A stretch of 56,441 bases of DNA, from NCBI GenBank assembly GCA_043798555.1, contig JAZDOO010000406.1, positions 1-56,441 of the forward strand, written 5' to 3'. A program made the position numbers and the translations under genes. Numbering within the stretch: the stretch's first letter is position 1; each line of letters starts with the position of its first letter. The stretch is from Pseudomonadota bacterium. GTDB taxonomy: Bacteria > Desulfobacterota > WTBG01 > JAGOGO01. The notes beneath the pieces were generated by a model, which saw nothing but the letters and a program-made list of their open reading frames with translations, searched no databases and was not told the origin of the DNA. Shown here piece by piece: positions 5,113-43,058 of the stretch.

Positions 5113-5565
5113 TTATTGAGGCATCTGGATCAACTCCAGAGGGTGGCCTTCAGGATCCTGGAAGTAAAGCACCTTTGTGCCGGCGAAAATGGGGTGGTCT
5201 TTGGGCACCGTCTGAGGCCCGCCTTTAGAGATAATTCTTACCCCTTTTGCTTTGAGCCTGGCATAGTCTCGTTCCATGTCATCGGTTTGAAAAGCCAGAT
5301 GAACACCAAAAAGGTCATTACTTTTATAATCATCCGGGTAGCCTCTTCCCATCGGGCGATATTCGAGTAATTCGATTTGCATCCCCCCCCGTTCCATGAC
5401 CACGATTCTTTCGTTTTCCACGGGAAAATTGACAATATTATTCGTTTCCGTCCCGCTCACCGTGGTATCCAGAACTACCTGGAAGCCAAAGGTATCCCCG
5501 TAAAAAGCAATCATTTTTTCCATATCGTTTACCACTATGCCCGTGTGGCCTAAACTGGTAATCAT
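5113..5565 (-). CDS. VOC (glyoxalase/bleomycin-resistance/dioxygenase) family protein
   Basis: Motifs LGHTGIVVNDMEKMIAFY and GVHLAFQTDDMERDY, with a C-terminal FQDPEGHPLELIQ. I moved the start to the ATG at 5565 because AAGGAGG lies 7 nt upstream. The longer track ORF would overlap the RidA gene. Confidence 0.8.
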   Translation of the reverse strand: MITSLGHTGIVVNDMEKMIAFYGDTFGFQVVLDTTVSGTETNNIVNFPVENERIVVMERGGMQIELLEYRPMGRGYPDDYKSNDLFGVHLAFQTDDMERDYARLKAKGVRIISKGGPQTVPKDHPIFAGTKVLYFQDPEGHPLELIQMPQ

Positions 5566-5593
5566 TTTTAACCCCTCCTTTGCTATTGTTGTT

Positions 5594-5983
5594 TTATACC
5601 ACCGCAATCGCCTCCACTTCAATCATCATTCCCGGGAGTGCTAAGGAACTTACCTGTACCGCGGTCTGAGCCGGCATCCTGCCTTTAAAGAATTCCGCCT
5701 GCACGGCGCCATAATCCAGGAGGTTTCCCATGTCCACAAGATACACTCCCAGCTTCACAATATTTTCAAGGGAAGCACCCGCTTGCTCAAGTACGGTTTT
5801 GAGGTTCTCAAAGGTGAGCCGGGCTTGCGCCTGAAAATCTCCCGCATGCATGACCTCGCCTTCCGCCGAAATGCCCGCCTGCCCGGAAATGAAAATAATT
5901 GACTGAGCGCCATCGACTTTCCAGGCTTGAGAAAATCCGAAATTATCTTGCCAAAGCCAGGGATTAATTTGGGTCTTATTCAT
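5594..5983 (-). CDS. RidA/YjgF/endoribonuclease L-PSP family protein
   Basis: 129 aa. FISGQAG, ARLTFENLKTVLEQAGASLENIVKLGVYL and the C-terminal IEVEAIAVV are typical of the RidA fold family. Confidence 0.8.
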   Translation of the reverse strand: MNKTQINPWLWQDNFGFSQAWKVDGAQSIIFISGQAGISAEGEVMHAGDFQAQARLTFENLKTVLEQAGASLENIVKLGVYLVDMGNLLDYGAVQAEFFKGRMPAQTAVQVSSLALPGMMIEVEAIAVV

Positions 5984-6203: not shown

Positions 6204-7781
6204 ATGGAAAAAGATGCAGATGTAATCATCATTGGAGCAGGGCATAATAGCCTCACCGCCGCCTTATATCTTCAAAAGGCTGGGCATAAAGTGCTCATTA
6301 TTGAGCTATCGCAGGTCCCTGGGGGAGCAGCCAAGACCGGAGAAATTCTTGAACCGGGATTTAAACACGACATTTATGCCACCAACATTGGCCAGTTTTT
6401 GGGTTCCCGCGTGTATGCTGATTTCAAGGATAAGTTTCACCAAAACGGTTTTGACATCATAGCGGTCAATCAGCCTTTCTCCAACGTTTTTCCCGATAAA
6501 AAATGTATCCGGGTATATACTGACCCTGCTAAGACATATCAGGAATTCAAGCGGTTTTCTTCCCGCGATGCGGAAGCCTGGAATGAAATGGTTGCCTATT
6601 TCAAGAAAGTTGCCCCTTACATGTTTCCGATACTGCAGTTGCCGATCCCTTCGATGCAGATGCTCCGTCACTTCTGGAAAATATACCGGGGACTAGGTGT
6701 GCACGAGATGCTCGATTTAGTCCGGATCCTATTGATGCCCACGCGGTATTTTCTTAATGAACGGTTTGAAAGTGAGGAGCCAAAAGCGCTCATTGCGCCA
6801 TGGGCATTTCACCTGGGGTTAAGCCCTGACCTTGCTGGCGGAGCAACTTTTTCTTTCCTTGAATCAGCGGCTGACCACCTTAATGGCCTTGCCTTATCAA
6901 AAGGCGGTACCGGAAAGCTCATCGAGGCCATGGTGAAAGTAATCAAGGAAGGGGGTGGCGAGCTCTTATTAGGACAAGCGGTAACTGAAATCGTGGTTAA
7001 AAACGGTATGGCGGTTGGGGTGAAGACTGCCAACGGACAAACCTATCAGGCAAAAAAGGCAGTGTTAGCCAATGTTACGCCCCATCAGTTCATCACCCTG
7101 GTAAAGGAAAAGGAGCTTCCGGGAAATTTCGTCACCCGGTGCAGAAACTTCCAGTTTGGGCCAGGGACACTCATGATCCATCTCACCCTGGATAAGCCTT
7201 TGGTTTGGGAAGCTGCCGAAGATCTCACCGATTCAGCGTATGTCCACGTTGCCCCTTACATGTCAGATATCGCTGCCACCTACAACCAGATTGTGGAGGG
7301 GCTGCTTCCCGGGAGTCCTATGCTCTGTATAGCCCAGCAGTCTCGTCACGACCCGGAAAGGGCTCCGGAAGGAAAACACGTGTTATGGGTCCAGGTGCGG
7401 GCTTTTCCGAGACGTCCGAGAGGCGACGCCTTAGGTCAGATAAAAACCGGGAACTGGGAGGAAATGAAAGAGCCGATTTGTGATCGAATCATCAACAAAA
7501 TCACGCACTATGCACCCAGCATCAGGAGCATTATCAGGAAGGCAGTTGTTCACACGCCCCAGGACCTTGAAGATGACGACCCTAATCTCTATGGTGGTGA
7601 TATGGTGGGTGGCCACCACCAGATGCACCAGTTTTTCTTCTTTCGACCAGTGCCCGGGTGGTCAAGGTATAAGACTCCCATAAAACGTCTGTATTTGACT
7701 GGCCAATCAACCTGGCCAGGCTGCGGCATGAATGCTGCCTCGGGCCATCTGGCAGCCATGCAAATGCTGAAAGATTTATAA
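6204..7781 (+). CDS. FAD/NAD(P)-dependent oxidoreductase, phytoene-desaturase (CrtI/CrtD)-like
   Basis: The N-terminal Rossmann motif is DVIIIGAGHNSLTAALYLQKAGHKVLIIE. Length is 525 aa, and the C-terminal LYLTGQSTWPGCGMNAASG is typical of the CrtI-like amine-oxidase fold. RBS AAGGAGGAGG precedes the ATG. Confidence 0.75.
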   Translation: MEKDADVIIIGAGHNSLTAALYLQKAGHKVLIIELSQVPGGAAKTGEILEPGFKHDIYATNIGQFLGSRVYADFKDKFHQNGFDIIAVNQPFSNVFPDKKCIRVYTDPAKTYQEFKRFSSRDAEAWNEMVAYFKKVAPYMFPILQLPIPSMQMLRHFWKIYRGLGVHEMLDLVRILLMPTRYFLNERFESEEPKALIAPWAFHLGLSPDLAGGATFSFLESAADHLNGLALSKGGTGKLIEAMVKVIKEGGGELLLGQAVTEIVVKNGMAVGVKTANGQTYQAKKAVLANVTPHQFITLVKEKELPGNFVTRCRNFQFGPGTLMIHLTLDKPLVWEAAEDLTDSAYVHVAPYMSDIAATYNQIVEGLLPGSPMLCIAQQSRHDPERAPEGKHVLWVQVRAFPRRPRGDALGQIKTGNWEEMKEPICDRIINKITHYAPSIRSIIRKAVVHTPQDLEDDDPNLYGGDMVGGHHQMHQFFFFRPVPGWSRYKTPIKRLYLTGQSTWPGCGMNAASGHLAAMQMLKDL

Positions 7782-29750: not shown

Positions 29751-29762
29751 TAGAAAAGGTAT

Positions 29763-30872
29763 TAATACAAACGCAATAAATATTTTGACATATAAGATAT
29801 TGCCATGATATGCTCTAGGCATGAAGAATCCAACGTTGACTTTAATGCATCCCGAAGCAAACCGAGAGAGTCTTTTGTCCTTTGCCCGAAGAATCCCAGG
29901 GGCCTATATCGGGTTAAAGATAGCGGCCCTGTTGCTGATATTGGAGGGTCAGCGTCCGGGGTGGATAATCGAGGTATTGGGGCTGACGCGTCAGAGTTTG
30001 AATCAATGGATGCACAAAGTAAACCAAGAAGGGTTGGAAGCCTTAAAAACAAAACCCAGGCCTGGACGCCCTCCTCGATTGGATCCGAAAATCGCTGCCG
30101 AATTGGAGGATCACTTGGAGAGGTCTCCCCAGGATTTTGAGATAAATCGAATTCGGTGGGATGGCCCGACCCTGGTGGTTCACCTGAGTCGACACTTTGG
30201 CATAAAGATAAAGATGCGTCAGGCTCAGTACTGGCTTCATCAATTGGGCTACCGTTTAAAAAGGGCGAGTTACACCTATTTGCAGGCTCGGCAAGAAGAA
30301 GCCAGAAGGTTTCAGAGGGCGTTAAAAAAAAAAACTCCAAAATCTTAAGCCTCGGGAGACCATTGTTTTTGAAGATGAAACGGGGTTTACCCTGCATCCC
30401 CGGTTGGAGGAGAGGATGGGCCAAGCGTGGTGTGCGGTTGCGTATTCCCACCAATAGCCAGCATCGTAAGAGGCTCAATATTTTTGGATGGGTGGCTCCT
30501 CTTCTGGGGCGACTTGGTCTGATTAAATTGATGGTAACTGAGAAGGATTTCTGGATTGTCTCAGAGACCTTTACGGCAAGCTTAGGGCGTATACCATATG
30601 GCTGTATGTTGACCAGGCAAGATGGCATCTGGGGAAAGAGGTAGAGATTTTTATAAGGACGCATAAACGTTTGCATATAGAGTATTTACCCCGTTACCAA
30701 CCTGGATCGAACATGCAAGAAAGGATATGGCGCCGGATTCGATATGAGGCGACAACCAACGGTTGGTTTGAGGATTTGGATATCATATGGGAAACAGTTC
30801 AAGATACTGCTCATTCCTGGACCCGGGCCAAAATCAAGCGGTTATGTCAAATTACTTAATGCGTTCGTATTA
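29763..30872 (+). mobile_element. IS630-family insertion sequence (1106 bp) with flanking TA duplication
   Basis: The terminal inverted repeats are 29765..29792 (ATACAAACGCAATAAATATTTTGACATA) and 30843..30870 (reverse complement ATACGAACGCATTAAGTAATTTGACATA), with 24 of 28 positions identical by eye. TA lies at 29763-64 and at 30871-72. Size, TA target and transposase type all fit IS630/Tc1-mariner. Confidence 0.8.
29821..30859 (+). pseudogene. IS630-family DDE transposase, disrupted by at least three frame changes
   Basis: Frame 1 holds the HTH region (LGLTRQSLNQWMHKVNQEGLEAL...PGRPPRL). After the A11 run (30325..30335) the frame changes: KKKLQNLKPRETIVFEDETGFTLHPRL. It changes again near 30400: RGWAKRGVRLRIPTNSQHRKRLNIFGW. 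It changes a third time near 30530, with a TGA: EGFLDCLRDLYGKLRAYTIWLYVDQARWH...LPRYQPGSNMQERIWRRIR. Confidence 0.8.
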
Positions 30873-31023
30873 GTTTGGAATCGGTATGAATTCCGCCATT
30901 GTTTATAGATAAACTAATTCTTTCTTTTTTGTTTTTGAAGATTTGTACCATTCGGCTATATTGACTATTTAATAGTTACATCATCGCGGCACCGATTTTG
31001 CGCAGATTCTTCAAAGAAAGATC

Positions 31024-31440
31024 ATGGCTCTCAAGAAGTGGAAAGAAACCTCAGAAGGGATTGAGGCGGCAAAGTTCACCTTTCAGCATCACGACCAAAA
31101 GTGGAAGAACGAGCGGAGGTATGTGGTGGTGAGACAAATGATTAACCGGCGGCCTAAGGTGATTCATTCCCTCAACCGGAATATTCTGAATGCAAAAGGA
31201 CCTTTTGAACAGTTCACGACACTTCGGTCCAAATACTTTATCATACCGGCAGTGCTTGAAGGGGAGGGGGTTATCCAGTGCTTCGTCTTTCGGTTCGTTC
31301 TCCTTTCCTTCATTGAGTTCGCAGCTATGGTCACACAAAATCGAAGGCCCCAAGAAGTTGGGGCCTTCGATCAGCTTTTCAATTCCTCAGTTACTTTCCA
31401 AACTTCTGGAGATAACCAATGGAGAACCGTTCCGGGGTAA
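31024..31440 (+). pseudogene. Possible remnant of a second DDE transposase (IS1380/IS4-like)
   Basis: FQHHDQKWKNERRYVVVRQ resembles the conserved ...W...RRVVV.E patch of IS1380/IS4-type transposases, and TLRSKYFIIPAVL resembles their C-terminal helix. The rest is missing or scrambled. The 3' end overlaps the DUF1329-like gene. This call rests on weak recollection only. Confidence 0.3.
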
Positions 31441-32737
31441 AGCCCACATTGAACTTCCGGCCCGGGAGGTTGACCGGCCAGGGGCTGGAATGGTCAATCT
31501 GGTTGTCATAGCAGCCGTAACACATTTCATAGAAGATGTCTTCTGTCCCCTGCGGCTGTTCGGGATCCCCATAGCCATACCATGAGTTCCAGCATGACTT
31601 CATAAGTTTCCCCGAAATATCATAGGCTACTGAATAGAGGGTTCGCCAGGTTCGATGAACTGGTTCCATCGGCGCAGTGTTTCCGATTACCCCGGCAATG
31701 AAAACAACCTTCTTGCTGTAAATGGGGCAGTCCTTGGGGTCTTTAGGCATACACTCTACACCGTATACCTCCGGTACCACCTCCCACTTTACCCTCAGGA
31801 ATTTATATCCCTCGGTAAAGGGAGGCAATACTTTTTCCTCCATGGTTCCCTTGGTTTTGCTCCAAACTCCACCGTGTATCATCGCCAGCATCGGTTTCAT
31901 GCTCACGAGCTTATATTTCCAGGTAGCAGTGGGAACATCGAGCTGGCGGAAATCACCCAGCGTAGCATCACTCCCTACGAAAGCATCAAACCTCTGAGCA
32001 CTGGCAAGGCGGCGAACCCTTCTCATGGCCGGGATGTACGCGTAGCTGTCATCGCGCTGGGTAGAGTCGTTGTACCGGATGCCCAGGTTTCCAAAGCCCT
32101 TGAGATCAAAGGGTTCCTGGACATAAGCAAACTGTTTGAACATCAGCTCTTTATATTTCTCCGCGTACGTAGGCTTGGGATCTAACTTCTCGCGGGCGGT
32201 GAGATAGATTCGGTCCCAGCTCATCTTAATCGTTCTCTCCAGCTTGCCGTCACTGCCTACATAGAATGGGTTCGTTTCATCATGGGTGAAGTCATCACCC
32301 TCATAGGAGTGAAGGTCATTGTACATCACCTTGAGCCCGGCCTGGGGATCATCAAGCTTCACATCGGGGAAGGGCGCCCCTCCATCCCACCAGTTCCCCT
32401 CTTTGGTTCTCAAGTTATCCTTTTCATCAATCACTGCCCGCCCCATGTTCTTCTTCGTGACCTCCACAAAAAATCCCGGAGTATGCCAGGGCCCCGGATC
32501 AGCGATCACCAGTTCCATCCCCTTCCCCACCATATCTACGTAACCATCCGGGATAAGGTCTTTTACCAGAGCAACATTACTTTTGTTAATGACATCCCCT
32601 GGTTTTACCTTGCCACCAGTCAGTTCCTGGATGGTTTGCCGGTCTCCCGCATATCCCGGAATAAAACAAATCCCCACAATGAAGGCGATACTCAAGAACC
32701 CGATAAACAACTTCCTCATTGTCATTACTTTTCTCAT
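31391..32737 (-). CDS. DUF1329-like (LolA-like fold) periplasmic/outer-membrane-associated protein
   Basis: Signal peptide MRKLFIGFLSIAFIVGICFIPGYAG. About 450 aa, with the patch YIPAMRRVRRLASAQRFDAFVGSDATLGDF that I associate with DUF1329. The start is set at 32737, behind AGGAGG. Confidence 0.55.
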   Translation of the reverse strand: MRKVMTMRKLFIGFLSIAFIVGICFIPGYAGDRQTIQELTGGKVKPGDVINKSNVALVKDLIPDGYVDMVGKGMELVIADPGPWHTPGFFVEVTKKNMGRAVIDEKDNLRTKEGNWWDGGAPFPDVKLDDPQAGLKVMYNDLHSYEGDDFTHDETNPFYVGSDGKLERTIKMSWDRIYLTAREKLDPKPTYAEKYKELMFKQFAYVQEPFDLKGFGNLGIRYNDSTQRDDSYAYIPAMRRVRRLASAQRFDAFVGSDATLGDFRQLDVPTATWKYKLVSMKPMLAMIHGGVWSKTKGTMEEKVLPPFTEGYKFLRVKWEVVPEVYGVECMPKDPKDCPIYSKKVVFIAGVIGNTAPMEPVHRTWRTLYSVAYDISGKLMKSCWNSWYGYGDPEQPQGTEDIFYEMCYGCYDNQIDHSSPWPVNLPGRKFNVGFTPERFSIGYLQKFGK

Positions 32738-32817
32738 AATTACCTCCTTTGGATATATACTTTCAGGGCGGCCTTGATGATGGACCGCCCTCAATCGGTT
32801 CTTTTTACCCCATGTAA

Positions 32818-34362
32818 TTAGAACTGGTAGGTGACCCGGAACATGAGTTCATCCCACCAGTAGAGCCCTCCGAGACCATCGTTCGCGGCGTTGCGGTCCT
32901 CGCCGCCAACCCAGGTGCCCAAGAGATAAAATCGCCAGTGGTCGCCGTATTGAAATTCGCACTGGGGAGCCAGCCAGAAGCCGCCTCTCGGGTCCCAGGC
33001 AAAGAAAAGGATGGGGTGAATTCTGTCCTGCTTGTACTGAGTATCCAGGCTTAAGGTGAAGGTAGTGGTAAGGGTTTGCACCTTATGACCACCTGAAAGG
33101 GTAATAATGTTTTCATCTAACTTGTCTTTCCCTTCCACCACAAACCGCTGAAAAACCTGGAACCCAAAGCCGAACGTTCTCCTGGGATTCAGAGCTCGCA
33201 GCCAGAAGGGCCGGTCAATTCCCAGACAGTATTTCACTGTCCCCAGTTTCTCTATCATGGCATTGGTGAATGAGCCAATGCCGGGGATGGTAATCCCTCG
33301 CTCGTACGGTTTATCCGGCTCGTAGAGGAACTCAAACCTATAGACTCCCTTGGTGAAACTGCTCTCATCATAATTGAACGAGAAACCAATATGACTCATA
33401 AGGGGATGGTGGCCGTATGCATTGAGCCTCATCAGGTCTTCCCGGCCGATTCCTGCCGGAGGAATAATATCCCCTGCTAACGGCACACCCCAGGTACGGT
33501 CAAAAACCACGGTACCCGGCACCAGGTAAACACCGTAATCACTGTGAGCCCGGAAATAATTGAGGGTGATTTCCGCCCGTTTCCAGATCCCGGAAAGTTT
33601 TACTCCCACTTCCGGCCCGTCCGGTTGCTCTTCATGGACTTTAACAACTGTAGGGAGCACATTGTAGGGAGCGCCATCCGAAGCGAGCTGGTCACCTACA
33701 AACTTCCCCGGGAGGATCAGGAGCTCGAGCTGGGGATTATCAACAAACGTAATACAGGGGATGTTGTAATTGGCCCGGACCATCCAGAGGGACTCCCGGA
33801 CGTTATCGTGCCCCTCATACATGGCATCGAAGATCAACCGCCAGCTTAGATCCAGGGGGTTGATTACGTCGAGGAGCCGGAACCCGTCCGTTTGGCCCCA
33901 GGATACCTGTTGTTTCCCCAGCCGGAGCCAAAGAGGGCCCATGGTAAGATCAGCATAAAGCTCCTGGATCTGGGCCATATTATCATCGTCCTCCAGCTTG
34001 AGATCCCCGGGGTATTCCAGAGGAAAGGCTTCGTACTGCCGGAGATTAGAGTCGAGCCCTCCGGAGGATTCATTGATGTATTTTATTTTGGAGAAAAGGC
34101 TAAACGTATCCGAGGCAGCATAGTTAAGTTCCAGTTGCAGCATGTTCCGGAACATGTTGACTTTGTGGTTGCCCTCGCTCAAGGGACGAAACTGGTTATT
34201 ATTGGGATTTTGCCCTCCAATGTGTAATCTGAACTGCGATTGGAGAAACCCATTAACCGTGAACTTCCCATCCATATACTGAAGAGTACACCATCCCTCT
34301 TGCCCAACAAGCAATACCATGAAGGCAATGAGGATGATTAGAATTTTATGTTTCTTTTCCAT
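32818..34362 (-). CDS. DUF1302-like outer-membrane beta-barrel protein
   Basis: A signal peptide, an alternating beta-strand pattern, the C-terminal ...FRVTYQF (terminal Phe, an OMP signature), and QVSWGQTDGFRLLDVINPLD. Confidence 0.55.
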   Translation of the reverse strand: MEKKHKILIILIAFMVLLVGQEGWCTLQYMDGKFTVNGFLQSQFRLHIGGQNPNNNQFRPLSEGNHKVNMFRNMLQLELNYAASDTFSLFSKIKYINESSGGLDSNLRQYEAFPLEYPGDLKLEDDDNMAQIQELYADLTMGPLWLRLGKQQVSWGQTDGFRLLDVINPLDLSWRLIFDAMYEGHDNVRESLWMVRANYNIPCITFVDNPQLELLILPGKFVGDQLASDGAPYNVLPTVVKVHEEQPDGPEVGVKLSGIWKRAEITLNYFRAHSDYGVYLVPGTVVFDRTWGVPLAGDIIPPAGIGREDLMRLNAYGHHPLMSHIGFSFNYDESSFTKGVYRFEFLYEPDKPYERGITIPGIGSFTNAMIEKLGTVKYCLGIDRPFWLRALNPRRTFGFGFQVFQRFVVEGKDKLDENIITLSGGHKVQTLTTTFTLSLDTQYKQDRIHPILFFAWDPRGGFWLAPQCEFQYGDHWRFYLLGTWVGGEDRNAANDGLGGLYWWDELMFRVTYQF

Positions 34363-34518
34363 TGGACCTCCTCCTTAAAAAGGTTAACTTTTACCATTTA
34401 CCATTCACGATCTTCTTACCCGTAAAAAACCAGGTAATCAGGTTGCACCACCTCCTTCTTTGCTGAATTAGTTTTACTACCGCCAACGTCCAGTTACCTA
34501 TCTTCATCATGCCTTCTT

Positions 34519-36870
34519 TTATTCTTCCTCCCGCACAAACAGTGACGCCCAACCCACAAATTTAGGTTTGAATACATACACCAGGGCAGGTATGAGCAAC
34601 AGCGATAAAACCATGTTGATCAAGAGGAGCAGGGATAATAAGAGGCCCATCTCTGCCTGAAAGCGCATGGAAGAGAGAAAAAACCACAGGAAAATACCTC
34701 CCACTGCGGTAGTGGCGGTGAACACCACTGCCTTCCCTGTGGTTTTCAATGCCGTCTGGATGGCGGTTTTATAATCCCGGTAATGCATAAACTCCTCACA
34801 GATCCGGGAGAGTACATACACCGAATAGTCAACTCCCACTCCGATTCCGATTGACGCCACGGGAATGGTGTTAACATTCAAACTGATCTGATTCATTACC
34901 ATCACTACCATGGTGAGGAAGTTCGCCAGCAATAAGGGGCAGAGAAGTATGAGCGCTGCCACGATTGACCGGTAGGTGATCATAGTGATGAGCATGGTAA
35001 ACCCGAGGATTAACGCCATATTTTGCGCCTGGGCCGCAGTTACCGTCTCATTGACTGCTGCAAGAATGCCCAGGTATCCGCTGGCGAGTCTGAACTTGAT
35101 TTTCTCATACATTTTGTTCAGTTCAATCCACTCCCGGGCTCTTTTTATCACTTCCCGAATGGTATCGCCCTTGTGGTCCTTACACCAGATAACAATATTG
35201 GCATCCTTATGATCCCGGCTCATCATCCGGTCAAAGTCGCCGGTTGAGGCGCCGCTGATAATAATATTCATGATGCTCCCCATCATATAGGGGTCCAACG
35301 GTACAACTTCCCACAGGGGGTCGCCGGAATGAAGGAACTTGTTCACCACCGGGGCATAATCCGCAAACGACTGGGACCCTCCCACCGCCGGGCTCGCTTC
35401 CATGAACAACTGACACTCCCGCATCTTTTGCTGAATTTCCGGAAACCGGATCAGTCCAGGTTCGCTTCCTTCGACAATGAAAAAGAGTTCATCGGTCCCG
35501 GCAAAGTTCTGATTAATGTTTTGGACTCCAATATTGTAAATGGAATCAGGTTTGAGGAGGGGTGAACCAGGGTGCAAATCTCCGATCTCGAGACGGGAGG
35601 CGACAATCCCCGAACCCACGGCTACGATCGCCAATCCGATTACTACGGCGAGAGAACCCCGCTTTCCGGTGGTCAGGTTTCCGAGTCCAAAAAGGAAGCT
35701 GCGGAGTAGAATATTCTCCCTCTCTGGTCTTACAATTGCCGCAATATTGCGGGGAAGGGGAAAATAATAGAAAAAGATGGGGTTAAGAATCATGGCACTT
35801 AAAATAACACTCATAAGCCAGAAGGAGCAGAAAAATGCCATCTTTTGCAAAAGCGGAATCGGGGCTATGGAAATCAGGAAAATCCCGGCAATATCCGTGA
35901 TGAGACTGAGCATGCCGGGGGGAAGGATACTTTGGATGACATAGGTACAGGCTTTCTTTTTGTCGCCAAGCTCGTCACAGAGCTCAAAATACCGTTCGCA
36001 CATTTGTACTGAATGGGTCATGGTCATAGCGGTGACTAATAACGGAATAACTAAGATAACTGGATCCAGGCTATACCCTAAGGCGCCCGCAAAACCAAGT
36101 CCCCAGATGGCGCTAATGAATCCGGTGAGCATGGGAATCACCATGCCGGCGAGATTGCGGAAGTAAAGGAAAAGCAGAATAAACATCACCGCCACGGTGA
36201 ATAGGAGGATATTCACGCTCTCAATGCGGTAGTGAAAAATCCAGCCCGTGAGCATTGGTTCGCCCGCAGCGTACACCTCGGTATTCTCATCAGCCAATTC
36301 TTTTACCAGTTCATTGACCTTACTAAAAACATGGTCATAGTCGAACTGCCCCTCCAGGAAATTAGCGGTTATGAGCGCACACTTGTCATCAAACGAGACC
36401 AGGGGCCCAAAAACATTTTCGTTGGCATGGACAGTCTTTTTCAGAATTCCAATCTCCGCTTCATTTTTCGGCACGTCACGCATTACTGCCATTAAGATAA
36501 GTCCACTCCCGGCTCCCACCACCACCTGTTTTACTTTGGGTGAGGAAAGGGATAAAACCTGGTAATGATTTACTCCCGGCAATGAATCCAGAAAATACTG
36601 GGCCCGCTCGATCTTCTTGAGGGTTGGGATAGTGAAAATATCGCCCTCCTTCACCTTGAGCATCAACATCACCATGTGCGATCCGCCCAGCTTTTCTTTG
36701 TATTTTTCATGAATTGTCCGGAAGGGGTGATTCGTTGGAAGCTGATCATCATAATTTGTTTTAATTACAATTTTTAAAGCATGATAGACAAAAAAACCCG
36801 TTACCGCTATCATGATCACAAGCAAGAGTAAGCGAAAGCGGATGACGAATTGAGCGAATTTTCTAATCAT
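34519..36870 (-). CDS. RND-superfamily (MMPL/HpnN-like) transporter
   Basis: About 784 aa with two blocks of about 6 TM helices, each preceded by a large soluble loop (1+5 / 1+5 topology by eye). The start is set at 36870 (MIRKF), behind GGAGGAG. The track ORF begins at 36888. Confidence 0.75.
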   Translation of the reverse strand: MIRKFAQFVIRFRLLLLVIMIAVTGFFVYHALKIVIKTNYDDQLPTNHPFRTIHEKYKEKLGGSHMVMLMLKVKEGDIFTIPTLKKIERAQYFLDSLPGVNHYQVLSLSSPKVKQVVVGAGSGLILMAVMRDVPKNEAEIGILKKTVHANENVFGPLVSFDDKCALITANFLEGQFDYDHVFSKVNELVKELADENTEVYAAGEPMLTGWIFHYRIESVNILLFTVAVMFILLFLYFRNLAGMVIPMLTGFISAIWGLGFAGALGYSLDPVILVIPLLVTAMTMTHSVQMCERYFELCDELGDKKKACTYVIQSILPPGMLSLITDIAGIFLISIAPIPLLQKMAFFCSFWLMSVILSAMILNPIFFYYFPLPRNIAAIVRPERENILLRSFLFGLGNLTTGKRGSLAVVIGLAIVAVGSGIVASRLEIGDLHPGSPLLKPDSIYNIGVQNINQNFAGTDELFFIVEGSEPGLIRFPEIQQKMRECQLFMEASPAVGGSQSFADYAPVVNKFLHSGDPLWEVVPLDPYMMGSIMNIIISGASTGDFDRMMSRDHKDANIVIWCKDHKGDTIREVIKRAREWIELNKMYEKIKFRLASGYLGILAAVNETVTAAQAQNMALILGFTMLITMITYRSIVAALILLCPLLLANFLTMVVMVMNQISLNVNTIPVASIGIGVGVDYSVYVLSRICEEFMHYRDYKTAIQTALKTTGKAVVFTATTAVGGIFLWFFLSSMRFQAEMGLLLSLLLLINMVLSLLLIPALVYVFKPKFVGWASLFVREEE

Positions 36871-36891
36871 ACCTTCTCCTCCCATCAATGA

Positions 36892-37989
36892 CTAAGTGAT
36901 TTGTTTCCATTTTTCCCCTTCATTATCGCTCAGTAAAACCGTACCCAACGCCCCGATAACCACAAACTTACCATTGATTACTTTGATGTCCCTCAACCAG
37001 GAAAAGAGGCTAATCCCCTCCGGTTTAAAGAGCTCCCACGTCTTTCCGCCGTCGTTGGTTCTGATGATTGAAGCCGCATTTCCCACCGCATATCCCCGGG
37101 ACCCGGAAACGACGATGCGAAAAAGCGTCTGCTTGGTCGGGCACTCCTGTTGATTCCAGGTATTGCCGCCATCTTCGGTATGCAAAAGGATGCCATTCAG
37201 TCCCGTGATCCAGCCCTCCCGGGTATCCTTGAAGCAGATACCGAACAGGTCATCCTCTACCCCGCTCTCTTTTTTCTGCCACGTACCTCCCCCATCGCTG
37301 GTATGGAAGACATTACCTTCCTCCCCCACAATCCATCCATTTTGGGGGTCAATAAAATAAACATCATTCAAGAGCGGTTCCAGAACCGGCATCCCTTCCT
37401 CAGAAACACTCTCTTCCGCCACCTCTTCGGCGCCAGTATCAGTTTCCGTCTCTTGCAGGGCCTCTTGGTCAATAAAGAACTTCACCTCTTTTTCCGGTTC
37501 TTTTACTTTCTGGGAAATATCCTGCCAGGTTTGCCCCCCATCTTCCGTGGTAAGCAGGGAAGCAAATTTCCCCATGACAAATCCCTTTTGAGCATTGAGG
37601 AATTTCACCCTGGTCAAATGTTCCTTAATCCCGCTCTCCTGCTTTACCCAGGTTTTCCCACCGTCGGACGTATGGAGAATGATACCCTGATCCCCCACTG
37701 CCCAGCCATTGGAGGTGTCCACAAAACTGACTCCTCGCAAAGGAAGAATCGTATTCGTCGTTTGCGGAGCCCATGTCTCTCCCCCATCACTGGTCTTGAT
37801 GAGTAGGCCATAATCCCCTGAAATCCACCCGTTCTTACTGTCCGCAAAGTCAACCCCAAAGAGCTTGTGGCGGTAACCCGCTACTTGAAATGGCCTCGTT
37901 TTTGAAGGGCTTTTATCCGCACAGCCGTAAAAACCAATGCCGATAATGAAACACAGAATACCAAGAGAAAATAACTTTAATTTTTTCAT
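36892..37989 (-). CDS. BNR/Asp-box repeat (Ycf48-like beta-propeller) lipoprotein
   Basis: The lipobox is IGFYGC. S/TxDGGxTW repeats recur: TSDGGETW, TSDGGKTW, TEDGGQTW, TSDGGGTW, TEDGGNTW, TNDGGKTW. Confidence 0.8.
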   Translation of the reverse strand: MKKLKLFSLGILCFIIGIGFYGCADKSPSKTRPFQVAGYRHKLFGVDFADSKNGWISGDYGLLIKTSDGGETWAPQTTNTILPLRGVSFVDTSNGWAVGDQGIILHTSDGGKTWVKQESGIKEHLTRVKFLNAQKGFVMGKFASLLTTEDGGQTWQDISQKVKEPEKEVKFFIDQEALQETETDTGAEEVAEESVSEEGMPVLEPLLNDVYFIDPQNGWIVGEEGNVFHTSDGGGTWQKKESGVEDDLFGICFKDTREGWITGLNGILLHTEDGGNTWNQQECPTKQTLFRIVVSGSRGYAVGNAASIIRTNDGGKTWELFKPEGISLFSWLRDIKVINGKFVVIGALGTVLLSDNEGEKWKQIT

Positions 37990-38103
37990 CCCAAATTTCT
38001 CCTCTCAATGCCACTTTCGACCAAAACTTAATAAAGAATATACTTTATTTTTTTGATTTTCAATACATTTTTTATTAAATATATTTTTAGACAAGCAAGT
38101 AAA

Positions 38104-38115
38104 TATAGATAGTTA
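38104..38115 (+). promoter_or_regulatory. Motif copy TATAGATAGTTA (YATAGATARTYA)
   Basis: One of four related 12-mers in the two promoter regions flanking the two-component system. Confidence 0.3.
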
Positions 38116-38144
38116 GAAGAAAAAAGTGAACTATCCTCCTCAGT

Positions 38145-38156
38145 GAGCATATGCTC
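38145..38156. promoter_or_regulatory. Perfect 12-bp palindrome GAGCATATGCTC
   Basis: Read directly. It lies in the AT-rich hub between the envelope operon and the kinase gene. Confidence 0.3.
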
Positions 38157-38352
38157 GGAAACGATTTTTATCAAAGTTTTTTCTATTTGTCAAATATTTT
38201 CTATACGTAATGTTATTGCAGCATGATTATGTTACCTTCCTTTGATTAACATGCAACCGGTTGAAAACAATATGGTGAATTTACGATAGCCTAAAAACAT
38301 AAACAAAACAACTGGATAACGTTATGAATAAAAATTTATAATTTACGCACGA

Positions 38353-38364
38353 CATAGATAATTA
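38353..38364 (+). promoter_or_regulatory. Motif copy CATAGATAATTA
   Basis: Same motif family and same orientation as the copy at 38104. Confidence 0.3.
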
Positions 38365-38502
38365 ATATACTTTTTAATAGAAAAATAGTGAATCCCTTGT
38401 TCCTATGGTATTTGAAAATTGATTAGATTTATAATTAATAAGTAATTGTATATTTTTTAAGCTTTATTGGGAAGTGAAGTCAGTTTTACAATTATAAACC
38501 TA

Positions 38503-38514
38503 CATAGATAGTTA
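38503..38514 (+). promoter_or_regulatory. Motif copy CATAGATAGTTA
   Basis: It ends 57 nt upstream of the kinase ATG. It matches the copy at 41026..41035 in 10 of 10 core positions. Confidence 0.35.
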
Positions 38515-38570
38515 AAATGAGAGCCTTACCTCTAATGGTATTACCCAATACCACAGGAATGACGTAGAAA

Positions 38571-40160
38571 ATGACGAAGATCATAAATACGCCTAAAAAA
38601 CATAGCCAGAGTAGTAATGTTCGATTGACCACCTCAACTAAGGGATTGCCTGGAGAAGCCAAACCTGGTCATGGAAGAAAGGATGATCCCTTAAAGGGCG
38701 AAGGACTCTACCGAAAACTGGTGGAAACGATGAATGACGGTCTGATTGTCGTAGACCAAAAGGGGGTAATCACTTACGTTAATAACAAATTTTGTGAAAT
38801 ATCAGGATATTCGCGAGGGGAACTTATCGATCATCCTGTAATAGATTTCTTCGAAGATTCTTCTGGAAAGATGCTCATAGAGCAAGGGCTAAGGCTTAGA
38901 AAAGGCGAGAATGTGTCTTACGAAATTACATGGTTGACAAAGGGAGGACACCGGGTTTTTTCTATCCAGTCTTCAGCACCCCTTATGGATGCAAATGGGG
39001 GCTTCAGGGGAAGTTTTGCAGTCGTTACGGATATTACGAAACAAAAAAAAGCGGAGGAAGCACTGAGGGAACGTGAGAAACATTTTCGTTCCCTCCTCCA
39101 AACAGCAGGAAGCGCAATCATTCTTCTCTCACCAGAACGTAAGATCCTCGAATTCAATAAAGAAGCAGAACGCATATACGGATATGAAAAGGAAGAGGTC
39201 TTGGGGAAAGACTATGTTGAATTGGTTTTTCCTGAAGAGGAACGAGAGGTCCAAGCAGAGATTATAGACCGAATCTTAAATGGAGAGGCCCTGAGGGGTT
39301 TTGAGAATGTAGTACGAGCGCGCGATGGAACCGAGCGGGAAATGCTCTGGAATGCTATTCCTTGGTTTGACGCTGAAGGAAGGACTATAGGTTGCATAGG
39401 AATCGGAATCGACATAACGAGGCAAAAGAAGATTGAGAAAGCACTGAGGGAATCGGAAAAGAAGCTTAGACACCTTTCATCTGAACTCCTTAATGCCCAG
39501 GAGAAAGAACGAAAGCGGATTTCTATAGAACTCCACGATGAGCTGGGACAATCTTTGACAACCCTGAAATTGCAGTTACGGGCGATTGAAACAAAATTGG
39601 GTAGGGCGCTCTACCCTTTGAAGAGAGACTGGACAGAAGCATTCCGAAGCCTTGATCAAGTCATCAAAAATACCCGTAACCTTTCTCGCGGTTTAAGTCC
39701 GATTATCCTGGAAGATCTTGGCCTCACGTCCACCCTGAAATGGCTGATAGATGACTTTAGCAGACGGTGTAATATTGAATGCTCAGTTAATCTGATAAAT
39801 CTCGATGATTTTTTTATGCCAGAAGCACAAATTGTCATTTACAGGATCTTTCAAGAATGTCTCGTAAATATTGCCAAGCATGCCAATGCCACTCAGGTAT
39901 CCATTGTAGTCAAAGATAATGGAGATAGCTTTTCTTTCTACATTAAAGACAATGGTAAGGGTTTTGAGATAGAAGAAGTTTCTCAGAGGAATACTAAGGC
40001 AACAGGAATGGGCTTTGTGGTAATGGAGGAGCGAGTAAACATGTTAAGAGGTTGCCTCGAATTAATAAGTCAGAAGGGGTTCGGCACCACGGTAAATATC
40101 AGCCTCCCCAAAATTAGAAAGGAGATTGATAATGCAACCTTATCTTTTGGTACTTGCTGA
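38571..40160 (+). CDS. Cytoplasmic dual-PAS sensor histidine kinase (HisKA_3 / NarX-DegS type)
   Basis: No TM segment. There are two PAS modules (LVETMNDGLIVVDQKGVITYVN... and LLQTAGSAIILLSPERKILEFN...), each ending in DIT.QKK.E. The H-box is ISIELHDELGQSL. The ATPase boxes are NIAKHANA, DNGKGF and GMGFVVMEER. Confidence 0.85.
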   Translation: MTKIINTPKKHSQSSNVRLTTSTKGLPGEAKPGHGRKDDPLKGEGLYRKLVETMNDGLIVVDQKGVITYVNNKFCEISGYSRGELIDHPVIDFFEDSSGKMLIEQGLRLRKGENVSYEITWLTKGGHRVFSIQSSAPLMDANGGFRGSFAVVTDITKQKKAEEALREREKHFRSLLQTAGSAIILLSPERKILEFNKEAERIYGYEKEEVLGKDYVELVFPEEEREVQAEIIDRILNGEALRGFENVVRARDGTEREMLWNAIPWFDAEGRTIGCIGIGIDITRQKKIEKALRESEKKLRHLSSELLNAQEKERKRISIELHDELGQSLTTLKLQLRAIETKLGRALYPLKRDWTEAFRSLDQVIKNTRNLSRGLSPIILEDLGLTSTLKWLIDDFSRRCNIECSVNLINLDDFFMPEAQIVIYRIFQECLVNIAKHANATQVSIVVKDNGDSFSFYIKDNGKGFEIEEVSQRNTKATGMGFVVMEERVNMLRGCLELISQKGFGTTVNISLPKIRKEIDNATLSFGTC

Positions 40161-40791
40161 CGATCACACCATGTTTCGCCAGGGAATCAAGAAAATTATC
40201 GAAACAAGGGATGACCTGAAAATAATTGGTGAAGCAAACGACGGCCTTGAACTTCTCGAACTTTTGAAAAAAGTGAAACCCAACCTGGTTATCCTTGACA
40301 TTTCTATGCCGAACCTTAGAGGCTTAGAAGCGACCCGTGAGATTAAGGTGCGCTATCCTGAAATTAAGATACTCGTACTAACCATGCATAAAAGCAGAGC
40401 GTACCTTCACCATGCGATTTTGGAGGGTGTTGAAGGGTATCTTTTAAAAGAAGATGCCGACACAGAATTTTTTGCCGCAATAAATGCCATTCGACAGGGG
40501 AAAACGTATATTTCACATCTCTTCTCATGTGAATTAATGTCCCTTTTGGCGACAGGGCCTTATGGAAGCGGAGACCAATCTTGCTCTGATCCCCTAACAG
40601 TCAGGGAAAGACAAGTAGTGAAGCTTATTGCAGAAGGAAAATCAAACAAGGAAATTGCCCAATTGCTTTTCGTCAGTGTACGAACGGTTGAACACCATCG
40701 AACCAACGCAATGAGAAAGTTAAATCTCAAGAAAACTGCTGATCTTGTGAAGTACGCCATCCAGGAGGGTTACATTGCCGTTACCACCTAA
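40132..40791 (+). CDS. NarL/FixJ (LuxR-type HTH) response regulator
   Basis: The receiver is LLVLADDH...LVILDISMP. The C-terminus is LTVRERQVVKLIAEGKSNKEIAQLLFVSVRTVEHHRTNAMRKL. The ATG at 40132 sits behind GGAG. It overlaps the kinase 3' end by 29 nt. Confidence 0.85.
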   Translation: MQPYLLVLADDHTMFRQGIKKIIETRDDLKIIGEANDGLELLELLKKVKPNLVILDISMPNLRGLEATREIKVRYPEIKILVLTMHKSRAYLHHAILEGVEGYLLKEDADTEFFAAINAIRQGKTYISHLFSCELMSLLATGPYGSGDQSCSDPLTVRERQVVKLIAEGKSNKEIAQLLFVSVRTVEHHRTNAMRKLNLKKTADLVKYAIQEGYIAVTT

Positions 40792-40867: not shown

Positions 40868-40952
40868 TGCGTTCGACGCCAATTTGGAATTAAATCGCCT
40901 GGTATAAGATTAACAAGGTTTAGCTGTTTATGGATCAAAGCCTTTAAGCCTA

Positions 40953-40969
40953 TGGGAACCGCAATTGCA
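40953..40969 (+). promoter_or_regulatory. Weak sigma54-like -24/-12 element
   Basis: In TGGGAACCGCAATTGCA, reading GGGAAC-N5-TTGCA gives correct GG-N10-GC spacing, about 100 nt upstream of the ATG at 41070. No enhancer-binding protein gene is in the window. Confidence 0.2.
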
Positions 40970-41025
40970 TAATTTCTCAAGTGAAGCTTATCATTTTATG
41001 ACAATGAGCGTGCATCTTATCCATG

Positions 41026-41069: not shown

Positions 41070-43058
41070 ATGGGGTATACGATAGATGTAGATACTGGCG
41101 GAACCTGCACCGACGGACTTTTTAGCGATGGGAAAAACTTAATTTGGATCAAAGTTGACACTACCCCTCACGATTTGACGATTGCTTTTAACGAGTGCCT
41201 GGAACAGGGGTCTAAAAAGCTCGGCTTTAGTAACCCATCAGAATTTCTCGATCACGTTAATATTATCCGCTGGTCAAGCACAATCGCAATCAATGCCATT
41301 GCCGAAAAGACTGGTCCGAAAGTGGGTCTGTTTGTCTCAAAGGGGTATGAGGAAACCCTTTATACTAGCACCACCTCACCAGCTATCGGTTATCTCGTTG
41401 ATCGGTCCAATATCGCCGGATTACCTCAACCAGTGAATGTTCCTGAATTTTTAAAAATGCTTAAGGAACTATTAGCAAAGGGAGTTCGAAGAATAGTCAT
41501 TTCTCTTAAAAACAGCTTTTACAATAACCGGAATGAGTTAGAAGCCAAAAGTATCATTTCCGAACAATATCCAGAACATTATTTGGGTAGTGTGCCAATT
41601 TTGACCGGAGAGGACATATGTAAGCATCCCGACGATATGACAAGAACCCATGCTGCACTCCTAAACACTTATGTGCATGGACCGATGGCTACCTCGTTAT
41701 TTAGGGAGGAAGACTATTTAAGAAAGAAGGGGTACACTCGGCCTCTCCTCATAGGTCACATTGACGGTGGAGTTGCCAGAGTATCAAAAACCAAGCCTAT
41801 AGACACGATTGAATCGGGACCTATTTTTGGCATCCACGGAAGTGTCTATTTTTCAAAACTCTACGGCTTGGATAGAGTAGTCACCTTGGACGTTGGTGGA
41901 ACCACAAGCAAAACTGGCTGGATTCTTGATGGCAGGCCTATTACTTCTACTGAAAACAGCATTTTTGGCATTCCTTTGAAAATTCCACTGGTTAGCCTGA
42001 GCAGCATTGCTTTAGGAGGAGGCACTGTTGCATTCCTAGAAAGCAAAAAGATAGTCCTTGGTCCCCGGAGTATGGGAGCATACCCCGGTCCTGCTTGCTA
42101 TAATCTGGGGGGCACAGAAGCGACGTTAACAGACGCTTTTGCCATTCTTGGGTACCTGAATCCGGACTACTTTGCTGGTGGAACTAAAAAGCTCGATTCG
42201 GGAAAGGCTGAGTCTGTGGTGCGGGAACGGATTGCCAACCCCCTCAATATAACGCTAGAAAAGTCCGCACAGTTGATTGCCAATGAGTCCTTCGACAAGG
42301 TAGCAAAACTTATCAAAACGAATACCACGCATAGTAGAGAATTACAAGACTACGTGTTATTTGCATTTGGTGGAAACGGTGGACTTTTTGCGTGCTTCGT
42401 GGCTGAAAAACTTGGAGTCGGTAAGGTGTATACCTTTTTTATTGGCCCCGTTTTTAGTGCCTTTGGATCGTCAGCCGCTGAAATTGCTCATAGTTATGAA
42501 TATGCACCATTTTTAGCATTAGCTGAATATAGCAGGTTACAGGAAATCATTGAAAATTTGAGAAACCGTGCTATACGGGATATGGAAGGCGAGGGGCTAA
42601 ACCTGGAAGATGTTAAACTTAGCCTCTCTTTTCTCATCAGTGACGGGATAAACTCCCCTCTTACGATAGAGTCTGAATATCTGAACTTTAACAGCAAGGA
42701 TGACGAGAAAAAAGTCAGAGAACTATTTAATAACAAAGCTCCTTCTAATTACAGCCGTGACAAACTGATCATAGAATTATTAAAAGTAACAGCCAAGCAT
42801 CCCTCCCCCACCCCTGAGCTAACAATTTTTCCTTTGGGAATTGCTGATTCAAAAGACGCCCTAAAAGAAAAGAGAGATGTTTATTGGAGTAACGGTTATT
42901 TTGCAACAAATGTTTATAACTGGGATTTGCTTCACGCTGGCAATGTAGTCAAAGGGCCGGCGATTATCGAAAGTGCTCATACAAATTATGTAATTCCACC
43001 ACTTTGGGAGTTGACGGTGGACGAGCACAAAAATGGAATCATGCAAAAATGGAGGTAG
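41070..43058 (+). CDS. Hydantoinase/oxoprolinase A (HyuA)-family subunit, divergent copy (acetophenone-carboxylase alpha-prime-like position)
   Basis: 662 aa. The N-terminus is TIDVDTGGTCTDGLF, a degenerate version of the DxGGTFTD phosphate-1 motif. The second ASKHA motif is LDVGGTTSK. Confidence 0.75.
   Translation: MGYTIDVDTGGTCTDGLFSDGKNLIWIKVDTTPHDLTIAFNECLEQGSKKLGFSNPSEFLDHVNIIRWSSTIAINAIAEKTGPKVGLFVSKGYEETLYTSTTSPAIGYLVDRSNIAGLPQPVNVPEFLKMLKELLAKGVRRIVISLKNSFYNNRNELEAKSIISEQYPEHYLGSVPILTGEDICKHPDDMTRTHAALLNTYVHGPMATSLFREEDYLRKKGYTRPLLIGHIDGGVARVSKTKPIDTIESGPIFGIHGSVYFSKLYGLDRVVTLDVGGTTSKTGWILDGRPITSTENSIFGIPLKIPLVSLSSIALGGGTVAFLESKKIVLGPRSMGAYPGPACYNLGGTEATLTDAFAILGYLNPDYFAGGTKKLDSGKAESVVRERIANPLNITLEKSAQLIANESFDKVAKLIKTNTTHSRELQDYVLFAFGGNGGLFACFVAEKLGVGKVYTFFIGPVFSAFGSSAAEIAHSYEYAPFLALAEYSRLQEIIENLRNRAIRDMEGEGLNLEDVKLSLSFLISDGINSPLTIESEYLNFNSKDDEKKVRELFNNKAPSNYSRDKLIIELLKVTAKHPSPTPELTIFPLGIADSKDALKEKRDVYWSNGYFATNVYNWDLLHAGNVVKGPAIIESAHTNYVIPPLWELTVDEHKNGIMQKWR

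Follow-up and report, generated by a model that had tools for sequence, protein, structure and literature searches.

The stretch of DNA analysed here (contig JAZDOO010000406.1 of assembly GCA_043798555.1, 56,441 bp, referred to below as the window) carried a four-gene cassette at 31391–37989. The cassette is very probably an envelope-spanning RND system of the AmeABCD type, the four-component module that Puentes-Cala and Harder named in Castellaniella defragrans 65Phen, where it is induced by monoterpenes (PMC6394551). Its four open reading frames (ORFs) were co-directional, all on the minus strand, in the order BNR-RND-DUF1302-DUF1329, and the four co-conserved products covered four envelope compartments with the expected folds and targeting signals. 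It is another copy of a system that has already been described and no new kind of system. The cassette probably serves as a catabolic accessory that handles pathway compounds. The fuller explanation that we consider best, namely a four-component AmeABCD-type RND system acting as the accessory of an anaerobic aromatic-catabolic island, stands at about an even chance when taken as a whole. The window came from a metagenome-assembled genome (MAG) of 3.26 Mb in 412 contigs, which was 89.7% complete.

The first gene of the cassette (36892–37989, minus strand) encodes a Ycf48-like BNR/Asp-box protein of 365 aa with seven predicted blades, a probable lipoprotein and the counterpart of AmeC. It is followed by the gene of an HAE3/MMPL-type inner-membrane transporter, the AmeD counterpart (34519–36870, minus strand; 783 aa from ATG 36870), by a DUF1302 gene for an outer-membrane beta-barrel of 514 aa, the AmeA counterpart (32818–34362, minus strand), and by a DUF1329 gene for a LolA-like periplasmic protein of 448 aa with a Sec signal peptide, the AmeB counterpart (31391–32737, minus strand). 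The RND ORF spans 34519–36888, and its real start is almost certainly ATG 36870, because this codon follows GGGAGGAGAAGG and the alignments of the orthologues begin there. Thus, the intergenic gaps were 21, 156 and 80 nt. The original prediction had given 3, 156 and 80 nt; the last two values stood, but the first holds only with a TTG start. The DUF1329 ORF spans 31391–32794, and its coding start was taken as ATG 32737, after AAGGAGG, which gives the 448 aa and fits the signal-peptide protein of about 450 aa that had been expected. All four domain assignments of that prediction (BNR, RND/MMPL, DUF1302 and DUF1329) were borne out, as the hidden Markov model matches, the structure models and the fold matches agreed.

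The RND protein matched PF03176 (MMPL) at 7.9e-30 (104 bits), and its best NCBIfam match was TIGR00921 (HAE3; 3.1e-45), whose 154.5 bits fell under the curated cut-off of 351.9. A hydropathy scan fitted the 12 transmembrane (TM) helices proposed earlier, arranged as TM1, a loop of ~190 residues, TM2–7, a second loop of ~190 residues and TM8–12. The nearest solved structures were those of MmpL3, MmpL4 and HpnN, with the alignment confined to the transmembrane core, and the TM10 sequence GVDYSVY aligned with the Asp-Tyr motifs of MmpL3. His292 of TM4 and Asp687-Tyr of TM10 were invariant in 23 of 23 clade members, and because of this invariance the proton-coupling site is predicted, by homology, to be intact. 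The protein was not assigned to the HpnN equivalogs (64 and 29 bits, where the cut-offs are 752 and 1100) or to the MmpL3 equivalog (38 bits against 1400). It also did not belong to the tripartite HAE1 type (AcrAB-TolC): no adaptor or OEP family match was found in the four proteins, the match to ACR_tran covered only 147 residues (28.1 bits), and the protein has ~783 aa compared with ~1050 aa in HAE1. Within residues 283–300, the position four residues ahead of the invariant TM4 His is an Arg in most clade members (ARALSH); a Met takes its place (AMTMTH) in the window protein and in the paralogues on contigs C121 and C225.

The spacer between the RND and DUF1302 genes (34363–34518, minus strand, 156 nt) kept its length in the orthologous loci (150–159 nt; L054:8656-8814 and L060:17650-17799). 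It showed no conserved sequence beyond the Shine-Dalgarno and no stable or conserved fold (z = -0.30), and there might be an internal promoter or a processing site inside it. No Rfam family was found anywhere in the window.

The propeller protein matched PF14870 (PSII_BNR) at 1.8e-48 (165.8 bits), and its best PDB match was Ycf48 (8am5_S, 7e-28). Six canonical [ST]xDGGxTW motifs were accompanied by a degenerate seventh (SDNEGEKW), so that seven blades, as in the seven-bladed Ycf48, are likely, and not the six-fold propeller described at first. The lipobox of that description stood, as the N-terminus (MKKLKLFSLGILCFIIGIGFYGC) contained a lipobox-like FYGC after the signal sequence. An acidic insert occupied about residues 163–205. 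Some homologues were lipoproteins, and those of the Binatia-type group had an uncleaved N-terminal TM helix instead. These lipobox or TM anchors, together with the tight coupling to the RND gene, suggest that the propeller is a membrane-tethered partner of the RND pump. Identity with the photosystem II assembly factor Ycf48/HCF136 was rejected, with 161 bits to NF010237 against a cut-off of 326 and a context of anaerobic catabolism. An exact look-up of the protein in public assemblies returned no record.

The DUF1302 protein matched PF06980 with 50.2 bits (cut-off 23.2), carried a signal peptide and ended in ...VTYQF, in keeping with the outer-membrane-like barrel ending in Phe that had been proposed; a C-terminal Phe was present in 14 of 16 family members. 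Its AlphaFold model, based on 37 homologues, was a large beta-barrel (pLDDT 80, pTM 0.78), and the best fold matches were channels of 16–18 strands (Campylobacter MOMP, AlgE, OccAB and chitoporin). The published 18-strand model of a Pseudomonas DUF1302 member agrees with this barrel fold (PMC13499233). A FadL/TodX channel, which is a 14-strand barrel with an N-terminal hatch, was rejected: there was no FadL Pfam match, and the top 50 fold matches consisted of 16–18-strand porins, AlgE and Occ channels, with no FadL among them.

The DUF1329 protein matched PF07044 (1.8e-35, 123 bits, cut-off 23.1) and also PF17131 (LolA_like). Its model (pLDDT 84.8) had a C-terminal LolA-like domain and an extra N-terminal domain, and the fold matches were P. 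gingivalis LolA3 (9tp6, TM-score 0.83 on the target), 3bk5 and 4z48, the last being a solved short DUF1329 protein. Members of the family from the clade of the window carried a Sec signal peptide, and those of the Binatia-type group had a twin-arginine one (RRDFLK); judging from these signals, the protein is soluble and periplasmic. In the cassettes of the Binatia/Nitrospirota type (L009:6064-7422, L010:13996-15354, L015:13826-15178 and L016:11382-12812), DUF1329 proteins with RRDFLK were accompanied by BNR partners that had a TM helix and no lipobox.

The two envelope families were strongly co-conserved. Among 151 genomes of the phylum, DUF1329 was present in 44 of the 46 with DUF1302; 17 had DUF1329 only, mostly as weak LolA-like matches, and 88 had neither (Fisher p = 1.5e-21, a value that is overstated since relatives are not independent). 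Each of the 41 nearest genomes had both the RND and the DUF1329 family, 40 of them had DUF1302 as well, and the match counts of DUF1302 and DUF1329 correlated (rho = 0.86). All four DUF1302 genes of genome G005, which is complete and on one contig, adjoined a DUF1329 gene, and three of these pairs lay <4 kb from an RND gene; in G027, DUF1329 stood alongside 12 of the 13 DUF1302 genes. The co-occurrence that had been expected was thus confirmed. The order BNR-RND-DUF1302-DUF1329 recurred in MAG loci of Nitrospirota, Binatota, Myxococcota and Thermodesulfobacteriota.

Beyond this locus, the genome of the window contained at least seven other cassettes or partial ones, all of them deeply diverged. 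Their full-length matches were 26–43% identical to the window protein for RND and 22–29% for DUF1302 and DUF1329. Contig C61 comprised UbiD, DUF1329, DUF1302 and TetR genes and then divergent BNR, RND, CoA ligase and 4-hydroxybenzoyl-CoA-reductase-like genes. On C225 and C368, the cassette was followed by OYE-type reductases; on C390, the BNR gene adjoined ferredoxin, Mo-oxidoreductase, enoyl-CoA hydratase and UbiD; and on C121, a fumarate-reductase-like flavoprotein and a PrpD protein preceded BNR-RND. The exception to this catabolic pattern was C67, where the immediate neighbours were RecJ and an aminopeptidase. Relatives of the same class reached per-genome maxima of 36 DUF1329, 18 DUF1302 and 29 RND matches, which are counts of matches and not of genes. 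One of them, G011, had at least 36 DUF1329 matches (for example C535:1732-5695, C130:236-2703 and C102:367-2923), several in tandem pairs, compared with 6 for DUF1302 and 5 for RND; the carrier family DUF1329 has expanded on its own in this genome.

A search with the RND protein against the contigs of species-representative genomes yielded relatives of 37–41% identity and none above 44%. True orthologues of the cassette, with the RND protein ~70% identical, surfaced only via a metagenome protein search, in which the named homologues belonged to Syntrophales, Syntrophaceae and 'Deltaproteobacteria' MAGs. Orthologues were contained in the samples DRR438503–DRR438509 and SRR13007708. The cassette of L054 was 61% (BNR), 70% (RND), 74% (DUF1302) and 72% (DUF1329) identical to that of the window. 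Ahead of it stood the gene of a one-component regulator that combined four PAS domains with a LuxR-type helix-turn-helix (HTH), and FAD oxidoreductase, MFS transporter and glyoxalase genes followed it. The latter three (L054:13364-16708, the first being FAD amine-oxidase-like) were 74–75% identical to window genes 6204–7781, 893–2110 and 5113–5622. As these counterparts stand 24–30 kb from the cassette in the window, rearrangement within the island was indicated.

The cassette of L060 was 55% (BNR), 69% (RND), 56% (DUF1302) and 74% (DUF1329) identical to that of the window. On the same strand, TetR, AMP ligase, HyuA, HyuB, OYE and ACAD genes preceded it, and a TPP enzyme gene followed. The nearest copies of its Hyu genes in the genome of the window were on contig C310, outside the window. 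The segment C310:1010-13193 held TetR, AMP ligase, HyuA, HyuB and OYE genes, of which the first four were 60–81% identical, and the OYE gene ~50% identical, to those preceding the L060 cassette; no cassette was found on C310. Judged from these alignments, one cassette lineage occupies three different catabolic settings, and cassettes have evidently moved between islands. Because the orthologues adjoin other catabolic genes, the tie to the Apc-like carboxylase operon at 41070 is not conserved gene for gene. Of the link to catabolic genes claimed in the original prediction, the siting of cassettes in catabolic islands therefore stood, but the specific tie to the 41070 operon was weakened.

A comparable arrangement was found in genus g6 of another family (G016, G022 and G020), where a five-gene Apc-like operon, CoA ligase, Zn-dehydrogenase, DUF35 and thiolase genes formed one co-directional string. 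In G016, a complete cassette and an SDR gene came after this string, and for G022 the presence of BNR-RND-DUF1302 was confirmed; the G020 contig ends just past the CoA ligase, so that only the carboxylase part is visible there. The g6 RND protein fell in a well-supported clade distinct from that of the window RND; in the clade of the window, the other cassettes were followed by UbiD and MFS genes. Since Apc/Hyu modules adjoin cassettes of two separate RND lineages, the linkage to hydantoinase/Apc-type carboxylase modules is recurrent and arose more than once, as a theme and not as a fixed partnership.

An intergenic hub of 581 bp (37990–38570, 73% A+T) lies between the cassette and the divergent genes of a PAS-PAS-HisKA_3 histidine kinase and a NarL/LuxR-type response regulator (38571–40791, plus strand), which may regulate the cassette, the carboxylase operon or both. 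The divergent kinase and regulator, the hub of about 580 bp and the Apc-like carboxylase genes were all as first described. On the plus strand, the hub contained three exact YATAGATARTTA boxes. This triplet was beyond chance: none of 20,000 Markov simulations reached three copies, and 0.3% reached even one. Every copy sat 16–17 nt past TTTAnA on the same strand, and 35 nt ahead of the start codon of the carboxylase there was an inverted copy with one mismatch. As each box follows TTTAnA at promoter spacing, the three boxes have the look of promoter-like modules directed towards the kinase gene, and YATAGATARTTA was rejected as an operator shared with the cassette. Minus-strand promoter-like sites for the cassette were also present in the hub. 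At the level of sequence, neither the boxes nor these sites would count as evidence for co-regulation of the cassette with the carboxylase operon.

A LuxR-type HTH regulator accompanied the cassette in two of the three orthologous contexts, as the NarL-type response regulator here and in L054, and such a regulator also accompanies DUF1302/DUF1329 in Pseudomonas (PMC13499233; 10.1101/2020.07.04.188060). Because of this recurrence, the two-component system may act on the cassette no less than on the carboxylase operon. Upstream of the carboxylase operon, at 40940–40970, there was a GG-N10-GC element (TGGGAACCGCAATTGCA) that resembled a sigma54 -24/-12 site, with no adjacent sigma54 activator gene. 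Directly downstream of the cassette, degenerate mobile-element remains (29763–31390) formed the boundary of the module and separated it from a block of Mo-oxidoreductase, LysR and UbiD genes. In these remains, the ORF at 29821–30348 contained IS630-type HTH_32, HTH_29 and HTH_33 domains, and no intact transposase was present. The minus-strand ORF at 29762–30676 had no family match, looked spurious and was rejected as a gene.

We infer the assembly, cargo, substrate induction and direction of the system as follows. The four proteins would make up a single conduit leading from the inner membrane via the carrier to the barrel. The RND protein would sit in the inner membrane and be proton-driven through the conserved TM4 His and TM10 Asp-Tyr, and the propeller, whose gene stops 21 nt short of the RND start codon, would be tethered to the membrane beside it. 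The LolA-like DUF1329 protein would ferry hydrophobic cargo through the periplasm, and the porin-like DUF1302 barrel would pass it across the outer membrane. The cargo would most likely belong to the neighbouring pathways, either as their hydrophobic aromatic substrate or as one of their toxic intermediates; the multiplicity of the cassettes and their catabolic neighbourhoods favour such a substrate-linked cargo over a single housekeeping lipid. Outward transport is tentatively favoured, at slightly under an even chance, and the system would then act as a substrate-induced valve that clears the membranes of the compound under degradation. This direction was preferred because of three observations. 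Deletion of ameABCD lowered monoterpene tolerance and raised Nile Red accumulation, which was read as efflux (PMC6394551); all solved relatives of the RND protein (MmpL3, MmpL4 and HpnN) are exporters; and TetR-type regulators adjoin two cassettes, the C61 paralogue and the L060 orthologue. The EbN1 cassette, which is co-induced with the p-ethylphenol genes and was interpreted as solvent efflux (PMC4630880), speaks for the same direction.

The original prediction favoured a machine for uptake and not an efflux pump. That choice was not upheld: nothing at the locus pointed to a direction, and the ameABCD deletion, which is the sole deletion in the family, was read as efflux. Uptake does agree with the fitness results for Pseudomonas and Delftia. 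Inward transport is the rival that survives best, and we regard it as rather unlikely. In such a machine, DUF1302 would admit the substrate, DUF1329 would carry it across the periplasm, and the RND protein with the propeller would insert it into the inner membrane, each paralogous cassette serving one substrate class in the manner of a polysaccharide-utilisation locus. An analogy is found in eukaryotes, where the soluble carrier NPC2 hands off to NPC1, a member of the RND superfamily.

Several points weigh against the outward valve or speak for uptake. Thompson et al. found that PP_0765/0766 and PP_2018/2019 of P. putida were specifically required on Tween 20 and butyl stearate, which are poorly soluble and non-toxic, and the defects were absent on free fatty acids (10.1101/2020.07.04.188060). 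A Delftia DUF1329 mutant was impaired on phenanthrene, as far as it is cited in 10.1101/2024.12.15.628547. A growth need on insoluble, non-toxic substrates fits uptake better than detoxification. Co-folding of the P. putida proteins in the Foldy paper suggested a barrel-carrier complex and a carrier-propeller-RND complex, from which a substrate transport system was proposed (PMC10866462). The at least seven diverged cassettes in the MAG, each with its own barrel and carrier, and the up to 36 family matches per genome in relatives, mostly beside different catabolic genes, would resemble substrate-specific uptake loci, with one cassette per pathway, more than general efflux pumps. The repeated YATAGATARTTA boxes of the hub are oriented to the kinase gene and away from the cassette. 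Orthologous cassettes stand in three neighbourhoods, and therefore the cargo is not simply readable from the 41070 operon.

Uptake also meets objections. The greater divergence of barrel and carrier (22–29% identity) than of RND (33–43%) among the paralogues would point to substrate-specific acquisition, but this argument is weak, because polytopic membrane proteins generally evolve more slowly than soluble or outer-membrane ones. Small aromatic ketones and phenols pass membranes unaided, and to our knowledge there is no bacterial RND importer. In addition, the single targeted deletion in this family resulted in a tolerance phenotype (PMC6394551). A broader form of this alternative is that the many paralogous cassettes of this class of anaerobes are acquisition systems specific for hydrophobic aromatic and alicyclic compounds, a hydrophobe counterpart of polysaccharide-utilisation loci, in which the RND protein would work inward from the LolA-like carrier. 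We consider this form unlikely. If it were true, it would provide the first bacterial RND importer.

Another explanation is that the cassette exports an envelope lipid or an outer-membrane component, that is, a constituent of the cell itself, upon induction by solvent stress on the membrane. From the pleiotropic co-fitness of DUF1302, DUF1329, BNR and RND genes in Shewanella, Kangiella and Pseudomonas, Price et al. suggested that a cell-wall component is exported (10.1101/072470). Moreover, the nearest characterised RND proteins, HpnN and MmpL3, export lipids, the LolA fold binds acyl chains, and DUF1302 and DUF1329 are contained in the nanopods of Delftia, which are outer-membrane vesicle structures (PMC3110197, as far as it is cited in 10.1101/072470). 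However, one housekeeping cargo leaves 7 to 30 diverged cassettes per genome unexplained, as well as their consistent siting in different catabolic clusters, and no lipid-biosynthesis genes were found near the window cassette. This explanation is accordingly improbable.

Finally, it is very improbable that the cassette was merely brought in by rearrangement and acts independently of its catabolic neighbours. In favour of this reading, insertion-sequence remains lie directly downstream, the neighbours differ in L054 and L060, and those of L054 are the orthologues of window genes 24–30 kb away, but the neighbours were catabolic in the contexts examined (the immediate ones on C67 excepted), hydantoinase/Apc-type modules recur beside two separate RND lineages, and co-induction with catabolic genes was reported in EbN1, C. 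defragrans and Thauera (PMC4630880, PMC6394551, 10.1101/072470).

Cassettes of this type are widespread and linked to the degradation of hydrocarbons, terpenes, phenolics and lipids. The statement that the module has no settled function was correct, although it has already been named and partly studied. The genome-level picture is useful here, as many diverged cassettes per genome occur in one class of uncultured anaerobes, mostly each in a different catabolic cluster. This distribution, together with the movement of orthologues between islands, suggests that neighbouring genes can be used for guessing classes of cargo. In annotation, we advise that these genes be called AmeABCD-type envelope transporter components, and not hypothetical proteins or Ycf48.

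Among the known systems, HpnN and MmpL3 (PDB 5khn; 6ajf and others) resemble the window protein in their RND architecture and in having an Asp-Tyr motif within the transmembrane core. They differ in working without a dedicated barrel, LolA-like partner or propeller, and TM4 of the window RND has His and not Asp-Tyr. In the benzene degrader ORM2a (Desulfobacterota), a 'nanopod' cluster was among the most abundant proteins, and its transport direction was left open (10.1101/2024.12.15.628547). Compared by composition, this cluster likewise combines an RND protein with a porin-like protein and a relative of DUF1329, again in an anaerobe that degrades aromatics, but it includes a universal stress protein and no BNR protein is listed.

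In Aromatoleum aromaticum EbN1, a putative solvent efflux cluster (ebA326-ebA335) is located beside the p-ethylphenol/p-hydroxyacetophenone genes and is co-induced with them under EtpR (PMC4630880). As in the window, an envelope cluster stands beside an anaerobic aromatic pathway with a regulator gene between them, but the regulator is the sigma54-dependent EtpR there and a PAS kinase with a NarL-type response regulator here. The EbN1 pathway presumably includes an acetophenone-carboxylase-like enzyme, and we take ebA326, ebA327, ebA332 and ebA335 to be the same four families. The Pseudomonas system likewise comprises the four families, and a LuxR-type regulator adjoins the barrel/carrier pair; its set is split over two loci, with one or few per genome, whereas the set in the window is one cassette among many in its genome.

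The closest likeness, by families and architecture, was to AmeABCD. The same four families are involved, namely DUF1302, the LolA-like DUF1329, the COG4447 Ycf48-like propeller and the COG1033 HAE3 RND protein of ~785 aa with 12 TM, and in both cases the genes are adjacent and co-directional in a catabolic island for hydrophobic compounds. The order is BNR-RND-DUF1302-DUF1329 here, in contrast to DUF1302-DUF1329-BNR-RND in ame, and the barrel has 514 aa compared with 605 aa. In addition, the host of the window cassette is an uncultured anaerobe with at least seven paralogous sets, and the neighbours of the cassette are of the aromatic carboxylase type in place of the monoterpene genes that surround ame.

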